From the NCBI GenBank assembly GCA_050575255.1, contig JBNZDD010013572.1, positions 1,296,439-1,360,438 on the forward strand: DNA of 64,000 bases, written 5' to 3'. Positions 3,600-61,729 of the stretch are shown here, piece after piece (within the stretch, counting starts at the first letter, position 1; the number at the start of each line of letters is the position of its first letter). Under the pieces are notes generated by a model, which was not told the origin of the DNA, ran no database searches, and was given only the letters and a program-made list of their open reading frames with translations. This stretch comes from Harriotta raleighana. Lineage: Eukaryota. The position numbers and the translations under genes were made by a program.

Positions 3600-4603
3600 C
3601 ACACTGAGCCAGTACAAAAGCTTGATGTCTTGTTTGACCCTCAAGTGTTATTTAAACCCCACATCTATTGCCCATTCTGCGTTCCCCCACTTCTGCAACA
3701 TTACCCACCTCCACCACTATCTCCCCCTCAGACTGCTGAGACCCTCACCCATTCTTTTCTTGGATCCAAGTTTGTCTATCCTAACTCCCAACTTGCTGAT
3801 CTTCCCATCGCTTTCTTCCTGTAGTTCAGTGATCAGAGCACTCACCTTACAAGCATGAGACATGTGTTCGAATCCAGGCAGGACAGGGCGAAACCTTGGG
3901 CAAGTTTTCTTACTCCACATGCTTAATAATAATCCCTCCAAAAAAACACAACAGTAAAATTGGTCATTTCAATCCATGATTGTTTGTGGGACACTGGTGT
4001 ACACAATTGGCTGCCACGTTTTACCCAAAAATATACAGTCAATTCGCTTTACAGCATATTCTGTGAAGTGCTTTGAGACATCTAGAAGATGTGAAAAGTG
4101 CTATATTAAATGCAATGATTATTATTATTCCACAGGCTGCAGATTATTCAGAACTCTGCAGCTCATGTCCTCTCTCCGCTAGGCTCCATGGGCTGCTCAC
4201 CCCTATCCTCACCCAGCCCACCTAGCTCCCCATTCCCCAGAATCCTTGTCCTCAGTTTTAAAGCTCTCCAGGGTTTTGGTCCTATGTACCTCTGTGACCC
4301 AACTTGTCCGCTCGGCAGGCACTTGCCTGCTCCACGTATCCCACCCTCCACCATCAGCAGTTTGGTTTTCAGCCTTTCTATACCATCCTCTGGCACTCCA
4401 TCTCATCCCATCACCAGGGTTTTTCAAGACCTATTTCAAGACCTTCCTCTACAACCATGCCTTTGGTCATCTCCCTCCTACTCCACACTCCCCACCTTAA
4501 CCTCCAGTTTGGGTGCAAACCTTTCACTGTCCATTGCCTTGGAATGTCCTTGTGACATGAAAGGCACCATATAAATATATAAATATAATAATTGTTGTTG
4601 TTG
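3600..4603 (+). mobile_element. L2 LINE 3' fragment interrupted by a SINE
   Basis: ORF2 remnants (FDPQ..PHI; RILVLSFKALQG; FKTYFKTFLYNHAF) and (TTG)n tail; SINE inserted at 3817-4129. Confidence 0.8.
3817..4129 (+). mobile_element. tRNA-Deu SINE nested in L2
   Basis: tcctgtagttcagtgatcagagcac..gttcgaatcc head, Deu-like core, (ATT)n tail; L2 sequence resumes on both sides. Confidence 0.9.
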
Positions 4604-6142
4604 GACCATTTTGGCCTAAAATTTGATTATGCAGAAACGTAGAAAATTAATAAATTCAGCCCTAATTCACAAGCAGTTTTTCTGCAGTTCTTAAAAAGAG
4701 TCTGAACCAGGATTGATTTTAAGAATTTGTCACATTTCTGTGCAATCTTGAATTTTAAGCCAAAAGGGTAATCGAAATGCAGCACAAAAATACTGTACCA
4801 GAGCTTGGAGGATTTATTGCACAACGTGGGCAGGTGTTTCCTTTTTGTTTGGCACTTATGCCTGTAAAATAGTTAATAAAATGAGAAACATCAGTCAAGT
4901 ATCAGACCCTATTGTAACTTGGTCTCAGATATATATATAGAAGTAGGATTCTTTGATGCATTAGGAAAGCTTCATGGAAGGGATTTTACAGTAGATTCTT
5001 GANGTGTTCGAATCCAGGCAGGACAGGGCGAAACCTTGGGCAAGTTTTCTTACTCCACATGCTTAATAATAATCCCTCCAAAAAAACACAACAGTAAAAT
5101 TGGTCATTTCAATCCATGATTGTTTGTGGGACACTGGTGTACACAATTGGCTGCCACGTTTTACCCAAAAATATACAGTCAATTCGCTTTACAGCATATT
5201 CTGTGAAGTGCTTTGAGACATCTAGAAGATGTGAAAAGTGCTATATTAAATGCAATGATTATTATTATTCCACAGGCTGCAGATTATTCAGAACTCTGCA
5301 GCTCATGTCCTCTCTCCGCTAGGCTCCATGGGCTGCTCACCCCTATCCTCACCCAGCCCACCTAGCTCCCCATTCCCCAGAATCCTTGTCCTCAGTTTTA
5401 AAGCTCTCCAGGGTTTTGGTCCTATGTACCTCTGTGACCCAACTTGTCCGCTCGGCAGGCACTTGCCTGCTCCACGTATCCCACCCTCCACCATCAGCAG
5501 TTTGGTTTTCAGCCTTTCTATACCATCCTCTGGCACTCCATCTCATCCCATCACCAGGGTTTTTCAAGACCTATTTCAAGACCTTCCTCTACAACCATGC
5601 CTTTGGTCATCTCCCTCCTACTCCACACTCCCCACCTTAACCTCCAGTTTGGGTGCAAACCTTTCACTGTCCATTGCCTTGGAATGTCCTTGTGACATGA
5701 AAGGCACCATATAAATATATAAATATAATAATTGTTGTTGTTGGACCATTTTGGCCTAAAATTTGATTATGCAGAAACGTAGAAAATTAATAAATTCAGC
5801 CCTAATTCACAAGCAGTTTTTCTGCAGTTCTTAAAAAGAGTCTGAACCAGGATTGATTTTAAGAATTTGTCACATTTCTGTGCAATCTTGAATTTTAAGC
5901 CAAAAGGGTAATCGAAATGCAGCACAAAAATACTGTACCAGAGCTTGGAGGATTTATTGCACAACGTGGGCAGGTGTTTCCTTTTTGTTTGGCACTTATG
6001 CCTGTAAAATAGTTAATAAAATGAGAAACATCAGTCAAGTATCAGACCCTATTGTAACTTGGTCTCAGATATATATATAGAAGTAGGATTCTTTGATGCA
6101 TTAGGAAAGCTTCATGGAAGGGATTTTACAGTAGATTCTTGA
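3864..6142. other. 1139-bp tandem duplication across a single-N gap (probable assembly artefact)
   Basis: 3864-5002 is repeated at 5004-6142 with N at 5003; ORF track shows identical ORFs offset by 1140. Confidence 0.9.
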
Positions 6143-27677: not shown

Positions 27678-27990
27678 TGAAATCCTGTAGCTCAGAGGTT
27701 AGAGCACTCACCTTGCAAGCGAGGGACCTTGGTTCAATTCCAGGCAGGGAGAAAACTTGGGCAAGCTTCCTTACTCCACACGCCTAATAATAATCCCTCA
27801 AAAAAGAAACAATAATAAATTGGTCATTTCAAACCACGACTATTTGTGGGACAGTACTGTGCACAATTGGCTGCCGCATTTCTCCCACATATATACAGTC
27901 AATTCAATTTATGCGCTTAAATTGAAGCACTTTGAGATATCAAGAAGACATGAAAAGCATGATATTAAATGCAAGAATTATTATTATTAT
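27678..27990 (+). mobile_element. tRNA-Deu SINE, full length
   Basis: Head tcctgtagctcagaggttagagcac..ggttcaattcc, core, (ATT)n tail. Confidence 0.9.
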
Positions 27991-28073: not shown

Positions 28074-28393
28074 TGGAGCTCCTGTAGCTCAGTGGTTAGA
28101 GGACTCGTCTTACAAGAGTGACACCTGTGTTCGAATCCAGGCAGATCAGGGAGAAACCTTCAGCAAGTTTCCTTCCTCCGCCTAATAATAATCTGTCCAA
28201 AAAACAAACACAATAATAAAATTGGTCATTTCAATGCACGACTGTTTGAGGGACACTGCTGTGTGCAATTGGCAGCCGCATTTCGCCCACAAACATACAA
28301 TCAATTCACTTTACAGTATATTCTGTGAAGCGCTTTGAGACATTGATAAGATGTGAAAAGCAATCTATCAAATGCAAGGATTATTATTATTAT
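28074..28393 (+). mobile_element. tRNA-Deu SINE, full length
   Basis: tggagctcctgtagctcagtggttagag..gttcgaatcc..(ATT)n. Confidence 0.9.
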
Positions 28394-28899
28394 AGAACAC
28401 AGCTATTGAATTAAGATCAGAAATGATTTTGAGTATTTTTATGTTTTGAAAACATCAATAGTTTTTTATGATCCATGATCTGAGTCATTCGATCAGTTAT
28501 GCACATGTTGCCATATCCTCTCCACATGAGTTGATCATTGACGGGACAAATAAATGGCCATTATATTTCTCACCAATTATCTTTTATTTCAAATAATTAC
28601 AATCAATCCATTGCGGCAAACTCCACTGCTTAACAAATTAGTCCTTTCTCTGTGAAATGGATCGCATCATCTCTACTTATCTTGGAAATAACTAGATTTG
28701 TCATTTACTATGGAATCTGATTTCAACATGGTTTGTTGTGTGTTCCTTCACATCACTTTTGATGTGGTTGATCAAGCCCCCAAAACACTATATATACAGT
28801 TATCAAGAGAGAGTACACCATGGCTAAACGGCCATAGAGTGGCCATAGCAATACCTAAAGAGAAATAAATCAGAGGAGAATAAGGAAAGGTCAGGTAAA

Positions 28900-34206: not shown

Positions 34207-34520
34207 GGAGTCCTGTAGCTTGGTGCTTAGAGCACTTGCCTTACAAGCGAGAGACGTGGGTTTGATTCCAGGCAGGGCAATGCCTTGGGCAAGTTTCCTT
34301 ATTCCACACACATAATAATAATCCCTAAAAAAAAACTACAATAAATTGGTCATTTCAATCCACGTCTGTTTGTGGGACACTGCTGTGTGCAATTGGCTGC
34401 TGCATTTCGCCTATATATATATATACACTCAATTCACTTTACAGTATATTCTGTGAAGCGCTTTGAAATGTCTAGAAGATGTGATAAGGTGCAATATCAA
34501 ATGCAATGATTATTATTATT
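34207..34520 (+). mobile_element. tRNA-Deu SINE, full length
   Basis: ggagtcctgtagcttggtgcttagagcac..(ATT)n. Confidence 0.9.
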
Positions 34521-34724
34521 AAAAATATCATTACTGATGGGTCATCATTACAGTATTCTACCACCAAATTCAAAGAGTCAGAAGATTGCAGCACAATCCC
34601 AGCGTCTTGGGACTCCCTCCTGACGTGAAAGGCGCTCTAGAAATGTAATGTTGTTGTTGTTGTTGTTGCAGAGATCTTCAAAATCATTCCAAGAGGTGAA
34701 ACCTTTACCCTAGAGTTCCAAATA

Positions 34725-48254: not shown

Positions 48255-48566
48255 CTAATAATAATAATCCTTGCATTTGATATATATGATTTTCACATCT
48301 TCTATATGTCTCAAAGTGCTTCACAGAATATACTGTTAAGTGAATTGACTGTATATTTGTGGGAAAAACACGACAGCCAATTGCACACAGTAGTATGCCA
48401 CAAACAGTTGTAGATTGAAGTGACCAATTTATTATTTTTTTCATGAGGGATCATTATCTGACATGCAGAGTAAGGAAACTTGCCCAAGGTTTTCCCTGCC
48501 TGGAATTGAACCCAGGTCTCTCGCTTGTGAGGCGAGTGCTCTAACCACTGAGCTACAGGACTCCAC
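48255..48566 (-). mobile_element. tRNA-Deu SINE, full length
   Basis: Complete head, core and tail; possible short TSD actaa. Confidence 0.9.
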
Positions 48567-48691
48567 TAAATAAACACTTCCTGGTTTCTGTCCTGAAATT
48601 ATCCTTTGCAACTTAAGACCCATGCTTACTGTTTTCATGCATCTAAGAGAATTGTTCTGGATTTACATTTTCAATCCTATTTAAAATGTTA

Positions 48692-49145
48692 CATATAGAA
48701 TCATAGAATCATACAGCACAGATGGAGGCCATTCGTCCCATTGTGCCTGTACCGGGACTTTGAAAGGACTACCCAATTAGTTCAATTTCCCCATTCTTTT
48801 CCCATAGCTTCAGAATTTATTCCTTTTCAAGTGTATATCCAGTTCCCTAATGAAAGTTATTATTGTATCTGCTTCCACCACCCTTTCAAAGCAGTGCATT
48901 ACAGATTGTAAAAACTTGCTGCTAACAACAATTTCTCCTTATTTCCCCATTGATTTTGTTTGCCAATTATCCTAAATCAGTATCCCATGGTCACCACCAC
49001 CCCACTCCCATACCCCCACCAAATCCCAGTGAAAACAGTTGCTCCATATCTACTTTATCAAAAAACCTCATCATTTTGAACACCTCTATTAAATCTCCCC
49101 TTAACCTTCTCTGCTCTTAGGAGAGCACTCCCAGCTTCTCCAGTA
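48692..49145 (-). mobile_element. CR1 LINE 3' end
   Basis: (atagaatc)n tail, ggaggccattcgtccc, aaatctccccttaaccttctctgctc (antisense EQRRLRGDL). Confidence 0.85.
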
Positions 49146-49658
49146 AATCTCTATAAGGTGAATTGCTTGATGAATTGACCATATTTTCAGGGATCATTTG
49201 TGGGTTTTCTGCAAATAATAGGGAGTAGCATTTCAGTATTGCTTTACCAGACACAAATTTTATTTCATCAATAATAATGATCACATCAATATTTACATTT
49301 TTCACCCCAATAGCTGAAAGGAATAGCCCATAAACTACACCCACCTCCAACACTTAGCTAATGGATATACTTCCGCATTTCTGCAAGNTAGGAGAGCACT
49401 CCCAGCTTCTCCAGTAAATCTCTATAAGGTGAATTGCTTGATGAATTGACCATATTTTCAGGGATCATTTGTGGGTTTTCTGCAAATAATAGGGAGTAGC
49501 ATTTCAGTATTGCTTTACCAGACACAAATTTTATTTCATCAATAATAATGATCACATCAATATTTACATTTTTCACCCCAATAGCTGAAAGGAATAGCCC
49601 ATAAACTACACCCACCTCCAACACTTAGCTAATGGATATACTTCCGCATTTCTGCAAG
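49118..49658. other. 270-bp overlap duplication across N 49388
   Basis: Identical copies; duplicated ORF MLEVGVVYG.. Confidence 0.9.
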
Positions 49659-53320: not shown

Positions 53321-54225
53321 ACTTTAGATGTAGAGGAGCATTAGCCTCAGTGAGGAACCAGCCAAATATTGTTCTGAATATATTTCCTGGGATGTCCTCC
53401 CGACGTGAAAGGAGCCATATAAATGTAATTTTGTTGTTGTTGTTGCAACTGTGGCTTCATGTTTTTCTCAAGCTCCTCTGTTCTTGGAGATATTTTGATT
53501 ATTAAACCCTTCCAAAGAATCACAATCCTAGAAGCAATGACACCCTCCAATATCTAACCCAAGTGATTGTGATTCTAACAGAATATTTGACTGTCAGAGG
53601 AATGTGGCACAGAAATATTGTCTATCACGATTGCTTAGGATTTTACCTGAATGTTTTGGGTGAAGAAAGCCCATTTGATTTCATACTTTCAGAATACCCA
53701 TCACAGCATCCAGTTGTTACCAATCCATGTGAATAGCCTATCAAGTTGATTTTGTAAGATGTATGCTTATCCAAAGTACTGTCAACAAATAAATTCAACT
53801 GAACTTCAAAAAACATTTAATTGGAAATGCTTCTCTAACATAATAGAAATGAAGCAGAATAGAATGGCTACCTTTGGATGTCATATATATCTCTGATGTC
53901 TTTATCTGAGGCTCCTCTCTTCCCAAAATATATTATTTATATGTTCAGGAAAGCCAGTTCCCACTGTAGATTGCAGCTTATCCATTGGAAGGATAAGGCT
54001 TGATAGTCTGAATGATTTCTGTCCCTTAAATTCTCAGTTACATGATATTCCCGTTAAATATCTATGCAAACAATATTCAAAATGGACTATCAATCAGATA
54101 CGTATCGCTGTAATTTTGACTTTTGTCTACCTCACACTGTACCTTACCCCACCAATATGTTAAGTTGCAACCTTAATTTGTTTTCATACTGCAGCATATA
54201 AACTGTCAGGTCAGTCATTTATATA

Positions 54226-55080
54226 CAACAAAAAAATTACATTTTTATAGCGTTTTTCAAATTCGGAGGACATCCCAAGGCACTGGACAGTCAGTGTTTT
54301 GGACCTTGTCTGAGGTTGGGATCGGGAAGGGTGGAGGGAAGAAAGGGGAGGGGTGGGGTGAGGTGGGGGATGTGGGGTGGGTAACTAATCTGTCTCACGA
54401 CGGTCTAAACTCAGCTCACGTTCCCTATTAGTGGGTGAACAATCCAACACTTGGTGAGTTCTGCTTCACAATGATGGGAAGAGCTGATGGCACTGTTAAA
54501 GAGGAGAGTCTTGAGGTTGAACTTGAAGGAGGCTAAGGAGGGCGCGAGCAGGAGGGGCTGCAGGGTGGAATTCCAAAGGTTGGAGGAAGAGTGGCTGAAG
54601 GCTTGCCCACCAAAGGTAGGGAGCGTTAGTCGCGGGACATGGAATAGGCTGGAGCCCACTGAGCGGAGGAAGCATCAGGTTAGTAGGGGGTTAAGAGATT
54701 GTAGATGCAAGGTGGGGTAAGGCCAAGAAGGGCTTTAACGATGAGGGCCAGGATTTTGAATTACATCCTTTGAGTGATGTGGAACCAGTGGATTTGGGTA
54801 AGAATGGGGCTGATAGGGTCATGGAGCTTTGTGTGGGAGAGGACATTAGCTGCAACCTATGGAGGGAGGAATTGGAGCGGCCGACAAACAGGACATTGGC
54901 ATAGTCGAGAATGGATGTGATAAAGGCATGAATGGGAGTTTCAGTGGCCTGATGAGTGAAGGGGTGGCGGAGTTGAGCAATGTTGCAGATGTGAGGGAAG
55001 GCAGAGTGGATCATAGCATGGATGGGGGGAGAAACGACAGTTGAGGATTCAGCAAGACACCTGGGTTCCTGATTGGCTTG
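54226..55080 (-). mobile_element. L2 LINE 3' fragment carrying a 28S rRNA piece
   Basis: ETPIHAFITSILDYAN; GGQAFSHSSSNLWNS..FKFNLKTLLFNSA; C-rich UTR and tail at 54226. Confidence 0.9.
54379..54487 (-). pseudogene. 28S rRNA fragment (domain V, peptidyl-transferase region)
   Basis: Minus strand tcagctcttcccatcattgtgaagcagaactcaccaagtgttggattgttcacccactaatagggaacgtgagctgagtttagaccgtcgtgagacagattagtt matches the conserved eukaryotic LSU segment as I recall it, with roughly 7 transitions. Confidence 0.9.
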
Positions 55081-56024
55081 GTGATATCCTAGGGCGCTTT
55101 GTTATTTACCCTCCATGCAGTAAGGAGTTATTGGGGTTTTGACACCCAATGCCCATATATAAAGTAAAATTGAAGACTGCAAAACATACAAAAGTGGACA
55201 AACCAGGCATGTTTGGGGTATGGGTTAAAATAACTTAAGAAGAAAGGCAATGGCAGCCACCAAGAATGAGGGCCTTAGCAATTCATTCTTAAAGTGAATA
55301 ATTTGGAAATAATACCAATGGAAAAACAATTTGGTTGGATAGTCTAATCACATCTGATTGGATAAAGCAGGAATAAAATTAAGCTGAGATCAGCAACCGG
55401 AAAAGAATAATTTAACAACATGGAAGAAGTTGCTCTGCAATTGTACTGCAATAAGAAGAAGCCAAATACAAATGTTATGTGGTCAATAGAATTGTACAAT
55501 TACGTCCTTCGGATGTTCTCCCGACGTGAAAGGCGTTCTATAAATGTAATTTTGTTGCTGCTATTGTTGTACAAGTGTGAAAATTGGATCCTGGAGGCTG
55601 AAGTAGGAAAAATGGTAGGCATTTGAGTTATACAGTGACAATGTTGAATCTGTGTTACATAGATGGAATGACTAATAGGAAGAGAACCTGAAAACAGCTC
55701 ACGAATAGAGCAAAGTGATAAGGTAGATCAAAATGAAATAAACAATGTTGCTGTATTATACAGAGTGTACAGGGGAAATTTATGTGGTTGTTACTCTATG
55801 GGAAAACTCAAAAGCATCAGCTTTAGATGCAGGCAAAGAGAAATGTTATTCAATTTGGGGATGGAATGGATAGATTTAAAATCAGGAATAGATGCAATCT
55901 TCATGCAGATTAATAGAGAGTAGACATGGACACCTAAAGCAATTGCATAAACAATAAAGTTGTCAACCTCTACAGTGGAGCAGCACCTAAGAAGGCAAGA
56001 TGGCACTTGCCTCTGCAAAGTAGG

Positions 56025-57484: not shown

Positions 57485-57797
57485 GGCATCCTGTAGCTCA
57501 GTGGTTAGAGCAATCAGCTCACAAATAAGAGACCTGGGTTCAATTCCAGGAAGGGCAAAACCTTGGGCAAGTTTGCTTACTCCACACGCCTGATAATAAT
57601 CCCTCAAGAAAAGAACAATAACAAATTGGTCACCTCAATCCACGACTATTCGTGGGACACTACTGTGCGCAATTGGCTGCCACGTTTGCCCATAAATATA
57701 TAGTCAATTCACTTGAAAATATATTCTGTGAAGTGCTTTGAAATGTCAAGAAGATGTGAAAAGTGCTATATCAAATGCAAGGATTAGAATTATTATA
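57485..57797 (+). mobile_element. tRNA-Deu SINE, full length
   Basis: tcctgtagctcagtggttagagc..gggttcaattcc..tail. Confidence 0.9.
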
Positions 57798-58671
57798 TAA
57801 ATGCAAGCTCTTGTTGTTACCTTTCTGTTCTCACCTGGGATCAGATTTGTAGTCCACGTATATGTATCACATTGAATGGGTCATAGGAAGACTCTAATTC
57901 TGTTAAAAATGGTGAAGTCATAGTAGTCTGGTCCATAAGACAATACTTTTAGTTTGTGAATCATGGACTTCCATTATTGTTAGTGGGATACTGGCTATTT
58001 GTTTTTGTTTATTAAAATTCCTATTTACCAGCAGACTTGAGCCTGAATTCCAATGCGGTAGGCCTGGCTTCTAGGATTTCACCATTGATACTGGTGTTGG
58101 GGGAAGGAGGATGGGTTGAGGACAGATATGAACATGACAAATATTACATGGACCATAGAATTCACCTCTACACCTCTTTCATTCAGTTCTGCTCATAAAA
58201 AAATGGTGAATCTATTGAATTATTTACTTCAGTATTAATTTGATCAAAAAATGTAAAAAGTAATATGTTTTGATGTAGAAATGTAAATACAAAGCTTTGC
58301 CCCCATTTTCCATTTAGCTCCAGTGCTGCTATAAGCATTTTAAAATGTGTCAAGAATGATCTGAGGAAAAGACAATGATTCCCAGTTGTGTTGCACAGTG
58401 GCACATATGAGACAGTCTGTGAGAGGTTACAATCAAATTCAGAGTTTCAACTGAGGATTTTAGGGTTCCACTGGAAAAATCTTTAAGATGAGTAAGAGCT
58501 AGGGATTTTAATTACAATAAGATCCATATTCGCAGTATTAAATAGATTTTATTTATTACTAGTATGATATAAAATGAGAATTTATTTTCTGAAAAATGCA
58601 TTGTACCAGCCTCTGTAAGGGCATGCTTAAACACATATCAGAGTTATTACTTTCTTACCTGTTTAGTAAGA

Positions 58672-58731: not shown

Positions 58732-59945
58732 ATTATCATAGTGAGTGAAACTTCCTAAAGAAATCAACTTTCAACAATCATTGAAGATTGGAACAACTTG
58801 AAGCATGTTCCACCACCTTAAATGAGACTCATTCAAATAGCATCTCAGTGGAAGATTGCTCTATGAGATCTTTCACTATACTATAGTTTACTATATACTC
58901 ATGCTCTCTATCAGTTTCCACCCTCCCTACTTCTAACTCTGGTCTAAAATACTGTCTGTCCAGCACCTAGGGACAGACATGTAGCCCTGACATGAAAGAC
59001 GCTCCACAAATGTAATGTTGTTGTTGTTACCAACACTGGAGCATTATTCATTCCCAATGTATAATTCTCTTATTCAGTCTCCAAATTCTTTGAAATCCCA
59101 TTTGCAAAGTTTCTTGGCATATTGTGATTTTCATGACCCATTCTGCTTTCCCCACCTCCACAGCATTGCTTGGCTCCATCACTGCCTTACCCTCAGGCCA
59201 AAGAGAGTCTCGAGCATTCTTTCATTATGTCCAGGCAGCATTACATCAATTTAGTTTGTCTCCCTGCTTACAGCATTTGTGGGAACCAGATTATATACTA
59301 AGGAAATCCTGTTAAAAATACATTAATTTAGCTTTCTTTATTTCTATCTTCCCTTCACTTTTTTTCTCTCTCTCTCTCTCTCTTCCCACCTGCCACTCAT
59401 GCTCTTTATCAATCTGATTTCCTGCTGTTCATACATTGGAGAATATTCTGATGAATTTGAAATTACAATTTGAACATTGTGAAATTCAAATAGTAATATG
59501 AAACTGAAATGAACTTGTTAAAGTAACAACATTCAATGTTCCGTCTGTTTTTCTCTTTTCATTCTGATTATGTTATAATTTTTCATACTGAATTTATATC
59601 TGTAGTGTTGTAAATTCAGTGTGAAAATCAGAAAACAAACCTGCCAAACTGTGCTCCGGTTCACCTTTTGCACCTTCACTGAGACCTATTCAAGCAGGTG
59701 TTCAGTGTTACAAAATTTATATGTCTGTTGCTAGTATACATTAATTATTTTGATTCTCTCAGACTCAGTGAAAGGTAGTTAAAATTTGCACTGTTCGAAA
59801 AAAGAAGGGAGTTTCTTCCGGTGTCATGGCCAACAATTCCCCCAAACAAATTAGTCATTTGTATCATCACTGTTTGTGGGACATTGCTGTGTGCAATCGG
59901 GCTGACACATTCACCTACAAAAACACAATCACTCCACTTTATATA

Positions 59946-60263
59946 AAAATAATAATCTTTGCATTTGATATCGCGCTTTTCACATCTTCTCGATGTCTCA
60001 AAGTGCTTCACATTATATAATGTAAAGTGAATTGACTGTATATTTGTGGGCGAAATGCGGCAGCCAATTGCGCACAGCGGTGTCCCACAAACAGTTGTGG
60101 ATTGAAATAATCAATTTTATTATTGTGTTTTTTTGAGAGATTATTATTAGGCGTGAGGAGTAAGTAAACTTGCCCAAGATTCCACCCTGATCTGCCGGGA
60201 TTTGAAACACAGGTCTCACGCTTTTAAGGCATGTGCTCTAACCAGCGAGCTACAGGAGTTCCA
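59946..60263 (-). mobile_element. tRNA-Deu SINE inserted into an older plus-strand DeuSINE (about 59840-60350)
   Basis: Full length; TSD actttata at 59936-43 and 60267-74. Confidence 0.9.
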
Positions 60264-61140: not shown

Positions 61141-61367
61141 ATGTTAACTTTTACAAACAGAAGTATAACGATCTTACAAAGAGAGCGTGATAGGATATAG
61201 TTTCATGACTGTTTATGAAATATTGTTCTGTGCAAAATTGGCTCCCCTCATTTGCCTACAAGTTTCAGTCATTTCAGCTTACTTTAGTATCTTCTGTGAA
61301 GCATTTTGAGAAGTGCCCCAATGTAAAACGCGCTAATTTCTAAAGTTCGTATCATTATTATATACAC

Positions 61368-61683
61368 ATAATAATAATCCTTGCATTTGATATAGCGCTT
61401 TTCACATCTTCTAGACATCTCAAAGCGCTTCACAGAATATACTGTAAAGTGAATTGACTGTGTATTTGTGGGCGAAACGTTGCAGCCAATTGCACACAGC
61501 AGTGTCCCACAAACACTCGTGGATTGAAATTGACTAATTTTTCATGATAGGTTTTTTTTGGGGACGGATTATTATTAGGCTGGTGGAGTAAGGGAACTTG
61601 TCTGAGGTTTCGTCCTATCTTGATTCGACACACAGATCATGCTTGTAAGTTGAGTGTTCTAACCATTGAGCTACAGGACTCCA
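61368..61683 (-). mobile_element. tRNA-Deu SINE, full length
   Basis: Head, core and tail; TSD cacata at 61365-70 and 61682-87. Confidence 0.9.
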
Positions 61684-61729
61684 CATATATGCGTCTTGGC
61701 TTGACAACTGCCAAATGAAGTTCATTACA

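Follow-up and report, generated by a model that had tools for sequence, protein, structure and literature searches.

Several ways in which 28S rRNA sequences become dispersed or joined to LINEs have been described. Tailless retropseudogenes (Noll et al. 2015, PMC5322556) are made by L1, carry target-site duplications (TSDs) and, in the available parts of that paper, were found only in therian mammals and in the anole lizard; ten 5'-truncated 28S cases are given for human. SINE28 elements (Longo et al. 2015, PMC4994717) are, according to the portions of the article consulted, dispersed fragments of 65-437 nt that are about 86% identical to rRNA, have been repeatedly re-derived from host rRNA and are sometimes embedded in another element; they correspond to the terminal ~500 nt of 28S and bear an A-rich tail and TSDs. 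Chimeras of 28S and LINE-1 arising in a single event are described in the accessible text of PMC13174262 as 5' additions to L1 of 50-482 nt (one event, n=18), mostly from human 28S 3636-4115 and 83% sense. Moreover, most LINEs are considered 'stringent' in their template choice (listing of PMC4176376).

In the window, i.e. the whole stretch of 64,000 nt analysed here, a 28S piece lies on the same strand as its host L2, as the first-pass annotation had proposed. It sits right after the frame ending ...KTLLFNSAI and ahead of the C-rich 3' UTR, the stem-loop and a (TTG)n-type tail, so that the placement between the end of ORF2 and the 3' UTR was also recovered (Table 1). The Rfam model LSU_rRNA_eukarya (positions 2884-2984 of 3401) matches window 54387-54487 on the minus strand with 110.2 bits and an E-value of 7.9e-28, a match that a 10-kb scan of the window had missed. 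Furthermore, over 105 nt the piece shares 94.3% identity with L002, an rDNA-like locus in this genome, from which it shows six differences, two of them CpG-type; changed columns amount to 4/89 at non-CpG and 1/8 at CpG positions. The length had been estimated as ~109 nt (54379-54487): the 28S piece is there, and 28S proper accounts for 105 nt, the longer figure counting the 4 nt shared at the right-hand end. Positions are given below on a module whose +1 is window 54487 and which runs along the 28S sense direction, as measured on the rDNA-like locus L002/L031. The structure line of the Rfam model places a 5-nt hairpin loop at +47 to +51, which we take to be the A-loop (H92). Since the window piece covers this loop, its earlier assignment to the peptidyl-transferase region of LSU domain V holds. 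By inferred numbering, it would correspond to about 4452-4556 of human 28S.

Table 1. Position, strand and supporting evidence of the features discussed in the window
Feature	Position	Strand	Evidence or remark
L2 3' stem-loop region and T/TTG tail	54225..54285	(-)	80-86% to sister tails; stem-loop read by eye
C-rich L2 3' UTR	54286..54378	(-)	exceeds that of most sisters by ~20 nt; variable tract length in sisters
Right junction microhomology ACCC	54379..54382	(-)	loss from L2 or 28S of about 2 nt at most
28S rRNA fragment, peptidyl-transferase region	54383..54487	(-)	Rfam 110 bits; 94.3% to rDNA locus L002
Left junction microhomology TCRG, common to native L2 and 28S	54484..54487	(-)	27 sister L2s compared with rDNA
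Decayed L2 ORF2 C-terminal region, 5'-truncated, ending at KTLLF motif	54488..55080	(-)	stops and frameshifts in translation
tRNA-headed SINE copies	3817-4129, 27679-27990, 28074-28397, 34207-34521, 48256-48576, 57489-57800, 59939-60263, 61358-61689		about 80% alike

The host LINE presumably belongs to the L2 clade, a name resting on motifs and tail type. It fits L2 features, namely an RT-bearing ORF2 (RVT_1 is detected in sister copy L036, further upstream in the element, E 2.9e-07) and a 3' end made of a stem-loop and a microsatellite tail. Pfam gave no match for the window's own 63-aa L2 stretch; an alignment of the C-terminal stretch with a sister L2 covers 60 aa at 65% identity. For one sister copy, the two top database relatives (64% and 60%) come from Callorhinchus milii, so that the host is probably a cartilaginous fish. 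The family is abundant, with 6014 and 2964 candidates for the two flank queries, and the best DNA identity to the window L2 among the best 40 scored of the 6014 is 79%. By eye, no TSD is seen at the ends of the whole L2 unit; L2 copies often have none.

Both junctions are almost flush. The insertion point reads approximately CCA-TCRG-TC-ACCCC in the native sequence of 27 non-redundant sister L2s. The window L2 is kept through TCAG, which is also 28S +1 to +4, and resumes at ACCC, which is also the end of the 28S match; alignment to the sisters indicates a loss of at most about 2 nt of L2 or 28S. The ACCC of the 28S 3' end thus matches the native L2 target, over 4 nt only, a comparison made for this copy. 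The microhomologies reported by the first-pass annotation therefore exist at both ends, but their extent against true sister L2s is limited to 4 nt per end. No clear TSD surrounds the 28S piece at this locus.

The two parts of the chimera have decayed unequally. Non-CpG changes affect 4/89 columns of the 28S piece relative to rDNA versus 57/390 columns of the L2 flanks relative to the sister majority (Fisher p 0.008). The window ORF2 differs by 16% from the sister majority, whereas the median for the sisters themselves is 10%; hence, it may belong to an unsampled subfamily, which would inflate the age of the L2. For this reason, a conservative L2 age of 10% was also used, and the difference is then borderline (p 0.05); the shortness of the 28S piece is a further limitation. 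Judged on this decay, the 28S piece is likely to be younger than its L2 flanks. We therefore favour, as the probable history of the locus, a later and tailless retrocopy of rRNA that landed in an old and decaying L2, i.e. the separate later insertion that had been listed as a last alternative and that fits best. The L2 DNA would have been nicked where the C-rich UTR begins, leaving an end able to pair with the 28S ACCC. The reverse transcriptase (RT) of a LINE, acting in trans, would then have copied about 105 nt of mature rRNA, and the 4-nt TCRG match would have served to join the cDNA to the L2 DNA upstream, with hardly any loss and no clear TSD. Since L2s dominate the loci seen, an L2-type enzyme may be guessed; L1 is also possible.

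The window piece is one of a crowd. The genome holds 147 candidates for the 105-nt region and 81 and 50 for its flanks, as compared with 3, 3, 9 and 4 for control 28S stretches of 105, 105, 631 and 256 nt, which is a more than tenfold over-representation. Stretches of 28S further 3' of the region gave only 3 and 4 candidates and are therefore not amplified. After merging of duplicates, 106 loci correspond to 77 distinct matches, one of which is rDNA, leaving 76 dispersed copies including that of the window; these are minimum counts in which the best matches are favoured, since the best 40 candidates were scored per search. Copy length is 40-366 nt with a median of 176 nt, identity to rDNA is 71-99% with a median of 82%, and nearly all copies fall within module -214 to +190. 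The window copy ranks as the 5th youngest of the 76.

Their 5' starts are variable, and they share no common head, tail or 5' end. A-rich tails are not in excess (at least 10 A in the next 15 nt in 2/76 copies; mean of 4.6 versus 4.4 in far flanks), and the window copy has no oligo(A) tail. Among the 57 copies that were not found through the 3' query, 20 end at +139 to +149. This pile lies at the foot of a hairpin obtained by folding at +141 to +167, which we assume to be the sarcin-ricin helix; the 3' end of the window copy, at +105 to +111, is outside it. Exact repeats of at least 7 nt flank 5 of the 76 copies versus 3.7 expected, i.e. no excess of TSDs. When mismatches are allowed, the only significant case among the 76 is L009 (19-column TSD, score 26, 0.05 expected). 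Short TSDs would be masked by the decay of the copies, whose median is 12% at non-CpG positions.

As in the class of Noll et al. (PMC5322556), as far as the available text describes it, there is no A-tail, internal 3' truncation sites are preferred and the 3' end matches the target. Unlike in that class, the host is probably an L2-rich cartilaginous fish, TSDs are mostly undetectable and a single 28S region has given rise to at least 76 copies. By analogy, the window piece may work like a tailless retropseudogene, as a variant of it. The locus shares with the chimeras of PMC13174262 a sense 28S sequence joined to a LINE, the size range (50-482 nt) and a preferred 28S region; unlike the cases in the accessible part of that study, the piece is internal to the L2, comes from another part of 28S and looks younger than the LINE. 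The dispersion of 28S fragments recalls SINE28 as presented in the portions consulted (PMC4994717), but the 28S region is not the terminal one, and neither A-rich or simple-repeat tails nor TSDs characterize the copies.

A double template switch within one event, preferred by the first-pass annotation, is disfavoured and appears unlikely compared with a later retrocopy. According to this scenario, the L2 RT would have copied the L2 tail, jumped at ACCC to 28S RNA for 105 nt and jumped back at TCRG to the same spot of the L2 RNA. The shared orientation, the microhomology at both ends, the near absence of L2 loss and the lack of a clear TSD all fit this, as does the sense bias of the known 28S/LINE-1 chimeras in the part of PMC13174262 available. 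Moreover, other loci suggest that template switching probably also happens in this genome: in L015, a 5' part of L2 is followed by a sense 28S piece at the ORF2 end with no L2 tail after it, and in L107, 28S is directly followed by sense L2 body, so that both could be true single-switch chimeras. However, simultaneous insertion of both parts does not agree with their unequal decay, which becomes borderline at the 10% L2 age. Furthermore, sisters as old as a 4.5%-diverged copy would be expected to be about 91% alike, far above the 79% of the best one scored. The L2 adjacency of the 76 copies is also at background: sense L2 body follows 6/76 of them (window included) versus 14/218 control flanks, and antisense L2 body 1/76 versus 10/218. 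Lastly, in L009 (G000:C13702, about 1297300-1297490), an L2-28S-L2 arrangement in which the L2 context was recognized by eye, the TSD surrounds the 28S piece (-39 to +143) alone. Another such layout, L131, has a different piece (+54 to +162) and different junctions.

Other associations with L2 were considered. Sense 28S pieces near the L2 ORF2 end number three (window, L015 and L131) versus 0.29 expected in 75, but this preference is not significant after ascertainment, as the query that retrieved two of them contained L2. Priming of L2 tails on 28S in a tail-to-tail manner was considered but set aside. Antisense tails follow 3/76 copies versus 3/218 controls; in L028, 28S resumes beyond the inserted element, so that later L2 insertion explains at least some of these joins. 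A sense L2 tail is present just upstream of 5/76 copies versus 4/217 controls, a small excess.

The crowd of copies carries recurrent changes relative to today's rDNA. At +79, T>A occurs in 11/57 copies, the highest among 78 T positions, for which the mean background is 3% (p 9e-7 uncorrected, about 2e-4 after correction for 234 tests), and in 11/45 copies when only gap-free alignments are kept; the base is unchanged in 40/57. The change is present in both young (5/18) and old (6/36) copies and is unlinked to eight other recurrent changes. Um2552 of E. coli corresponds to human Um4498, located in the A-loop, according to the available part of PMC7379855. In our mapping, +47 is taken as human 4498, so that +79 corresponds to U4530. 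In human 28S, U4530 is m3U, which mainly yields mismatches on reverse transcription in the parts consulted of PMC5066629, PMC8336963 and PMC10245971. By analogy with human 28S, from which m3U is placed here by position, the excess at +79 is likely to be the fossil of RT errors at this base. Both share an excess of substitutions and some deletions after reverse transcription. Unlike the published signature, obtained on cDNA in vitro, the errors here would come from the enzyme of a natural retroelement and have become fixed in the germ line; the T>A direction comes from this genome, the consulted parts of the same three papers giving none. In addition, of the 27 copies that the 3' query retrieved, 4 have their start at +76 to +81. 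This is only suggestive of an RT stop at m3U, since short copies are expected to be commoner anyway.

A second change, T>G at +112, reaches a comparable frequency (11/52 copies, with T>A in four others) and, like that at +79, to which it is unlinked, occurs in young and old copies alike; the two rank 1 and 2 of 442 transversion types, which counts against the m3U reading of +79. It fits no pairing-blocking modification in the available parts of the papers cited on 28S modification, and would reflect either an rRNA mark yet to be described or an ancient variant of rDNA giving rise to a CpG. Other positions track age. The copies differ from today's rDNA at -90 in 15/17 older versus 2/8 younger cases and at -87 in 13/22 older versus 0/7 younger ones, as would be expected if the copies had accumulated over a long period while the rRNA itself was changing. 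Neither a 28S hot spot of this kind nor fixed m3U errors in retrocopies appeared in the literature searched (titles and abstract openings, outside subscription journals, Repbase and supplements), and the consulted parts of PMC10946416, PMC5786205 and PMC5381670 contain no such hot spot.

These marks bear on a further explanation, in which a break in the old L2 would have been patched by a microhomology-mediated copy of rDNA or of a 28S pseudogene, with no RT at this locus. Microhomology, tiny loss and lack of a clear TSD fit end-joining repair, and all three are observed here (loss of at most 2 nt). Furthermore, the window copy lacks the +79 change, an absence that leans towards being uninformative given how many other copies keep the base. 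However, the piece falls within the one 28S region in which over-representation and an RT-type mark coincide, and copying from rDNA should not prefer one region of 28S. We therefore regard DNA repair as improbable, more so than the double switch.

An amplified L2 subfamily or SINE stably carrying a 28S module, also envisaged earlier, is largely refuted and can hardly be retained. The region has more than 100 candidate copies, and 35 pairs of copies share at least 4 derived changes versus a shuffled mean of 19.7 (maximum 34), an excess that could come from unequal ages, ignored by the shuffle. However, the highest number of changes shared by a pair is 5 versus a shuffled mean of 5.5, which indicates no master copy, and the copies lack a common architecture. 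Moreover, 28S is found in 0/66 sister L2 loci, which agrees with the initial remark that other L2 3' ends in the window lack it; among 9 candidates for a 68-nt query covering the left junction, the window alone spans it, and none of the other 29 loci fetched by similarity shares either junction. An assembly chimera of rDNA and L2 reads is just as improbable: the reads called for by the first-pass annotation did not appear over the left junction among the pieces listed (four runs on 54458-55300, a check of the L2 5' part and left junction only, swamped by other L2 copies), but the piece has decayed relative to rDNA, both its ends meet the same native L2 position, and the L2 part reappears in independent contigs with one difference each over 269 nt and 247 nt.

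The single locus in the window is an inert and ordinary by-product, an accident and no new element; the crowd of copies with its likely m3U footprint matters more. We tentatively propose, as a reading still open to serious doubt, that a LINE RT has been repeatedly templated on one region of mature 28S from the foot of the sarcin-ricin helix, in a non-mammalian genome. This enzyme could be of the L2 type, supposedly stringent in its choice of template as are most LINEs, and would use rRNA that is either the product of a defined cleavage or similar to a LINE tail. The copies could then be viewed as a dated fossil record of rRNA modification (m3U and, possibly, a further undescribed mark at +112) as well as of earlier rDNA states. 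If this is true, tailless retrocopying extends beyond mammals and lizards. If the +79 excess reflects RT errors at m3U, old retrocopies could serve as a germ-line archive of RNA modifications for unmeasured species. Furthermore, the sharp regional and 3'-end bias makes the choice of a non-LINE template by LINEs testable.

Several individual loci deserve mention. L004 (G000:C13713, about 8970100-8970490) is a young copy (-182 to +171, 95%) with the +79 change, whose 3' end passes through short hexamer repeats into a CAG tract and resembles template slippage at the start of reverse transcription. L005/L127 (G000:C13482:15670-16143) consists of near-intact pieces (-115 to +97 and +120 to +315, 97-99%), inverted and located beside N, an arrangement due either to twin priming or to an assembly join; L005 itself (99%, with an inverted second piece), counted among the 76 copies, could be derived from rDNA by another route. 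A short rDNA contig, L003 (G000:C10921:1-340), is identical to L002 over the module and clearly different just upstream; it is possibly a mosaic or a contaminant. An 18S control was discarded because its 789 candidates pile on a 60-nt L2 tail inside the 18S pseudogene used as query; all 12 loci fetched hold the L2 tail and none holds 18S. This tail (L032:7376-7437) belongs to a younger L2 family inserted in a decayed 18S pseudogene, and its best 40 matches are about 86-97% identical.

The window also includes perfect tandem duplicates, of 1139 nt (3864-5002 and 5004-6142, 100% identical) and of 270 nt (49118-49658, 100% identical). Both are likely to be assembly artefacts, and similar ones occur at L042/L043, L046/L051 and L115/L116. 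Lastly, a tRNA-headed SINE family of ~310 nt is abundant in the window, with copies about 80% alike and a weak tRNA match at 57487-57558.
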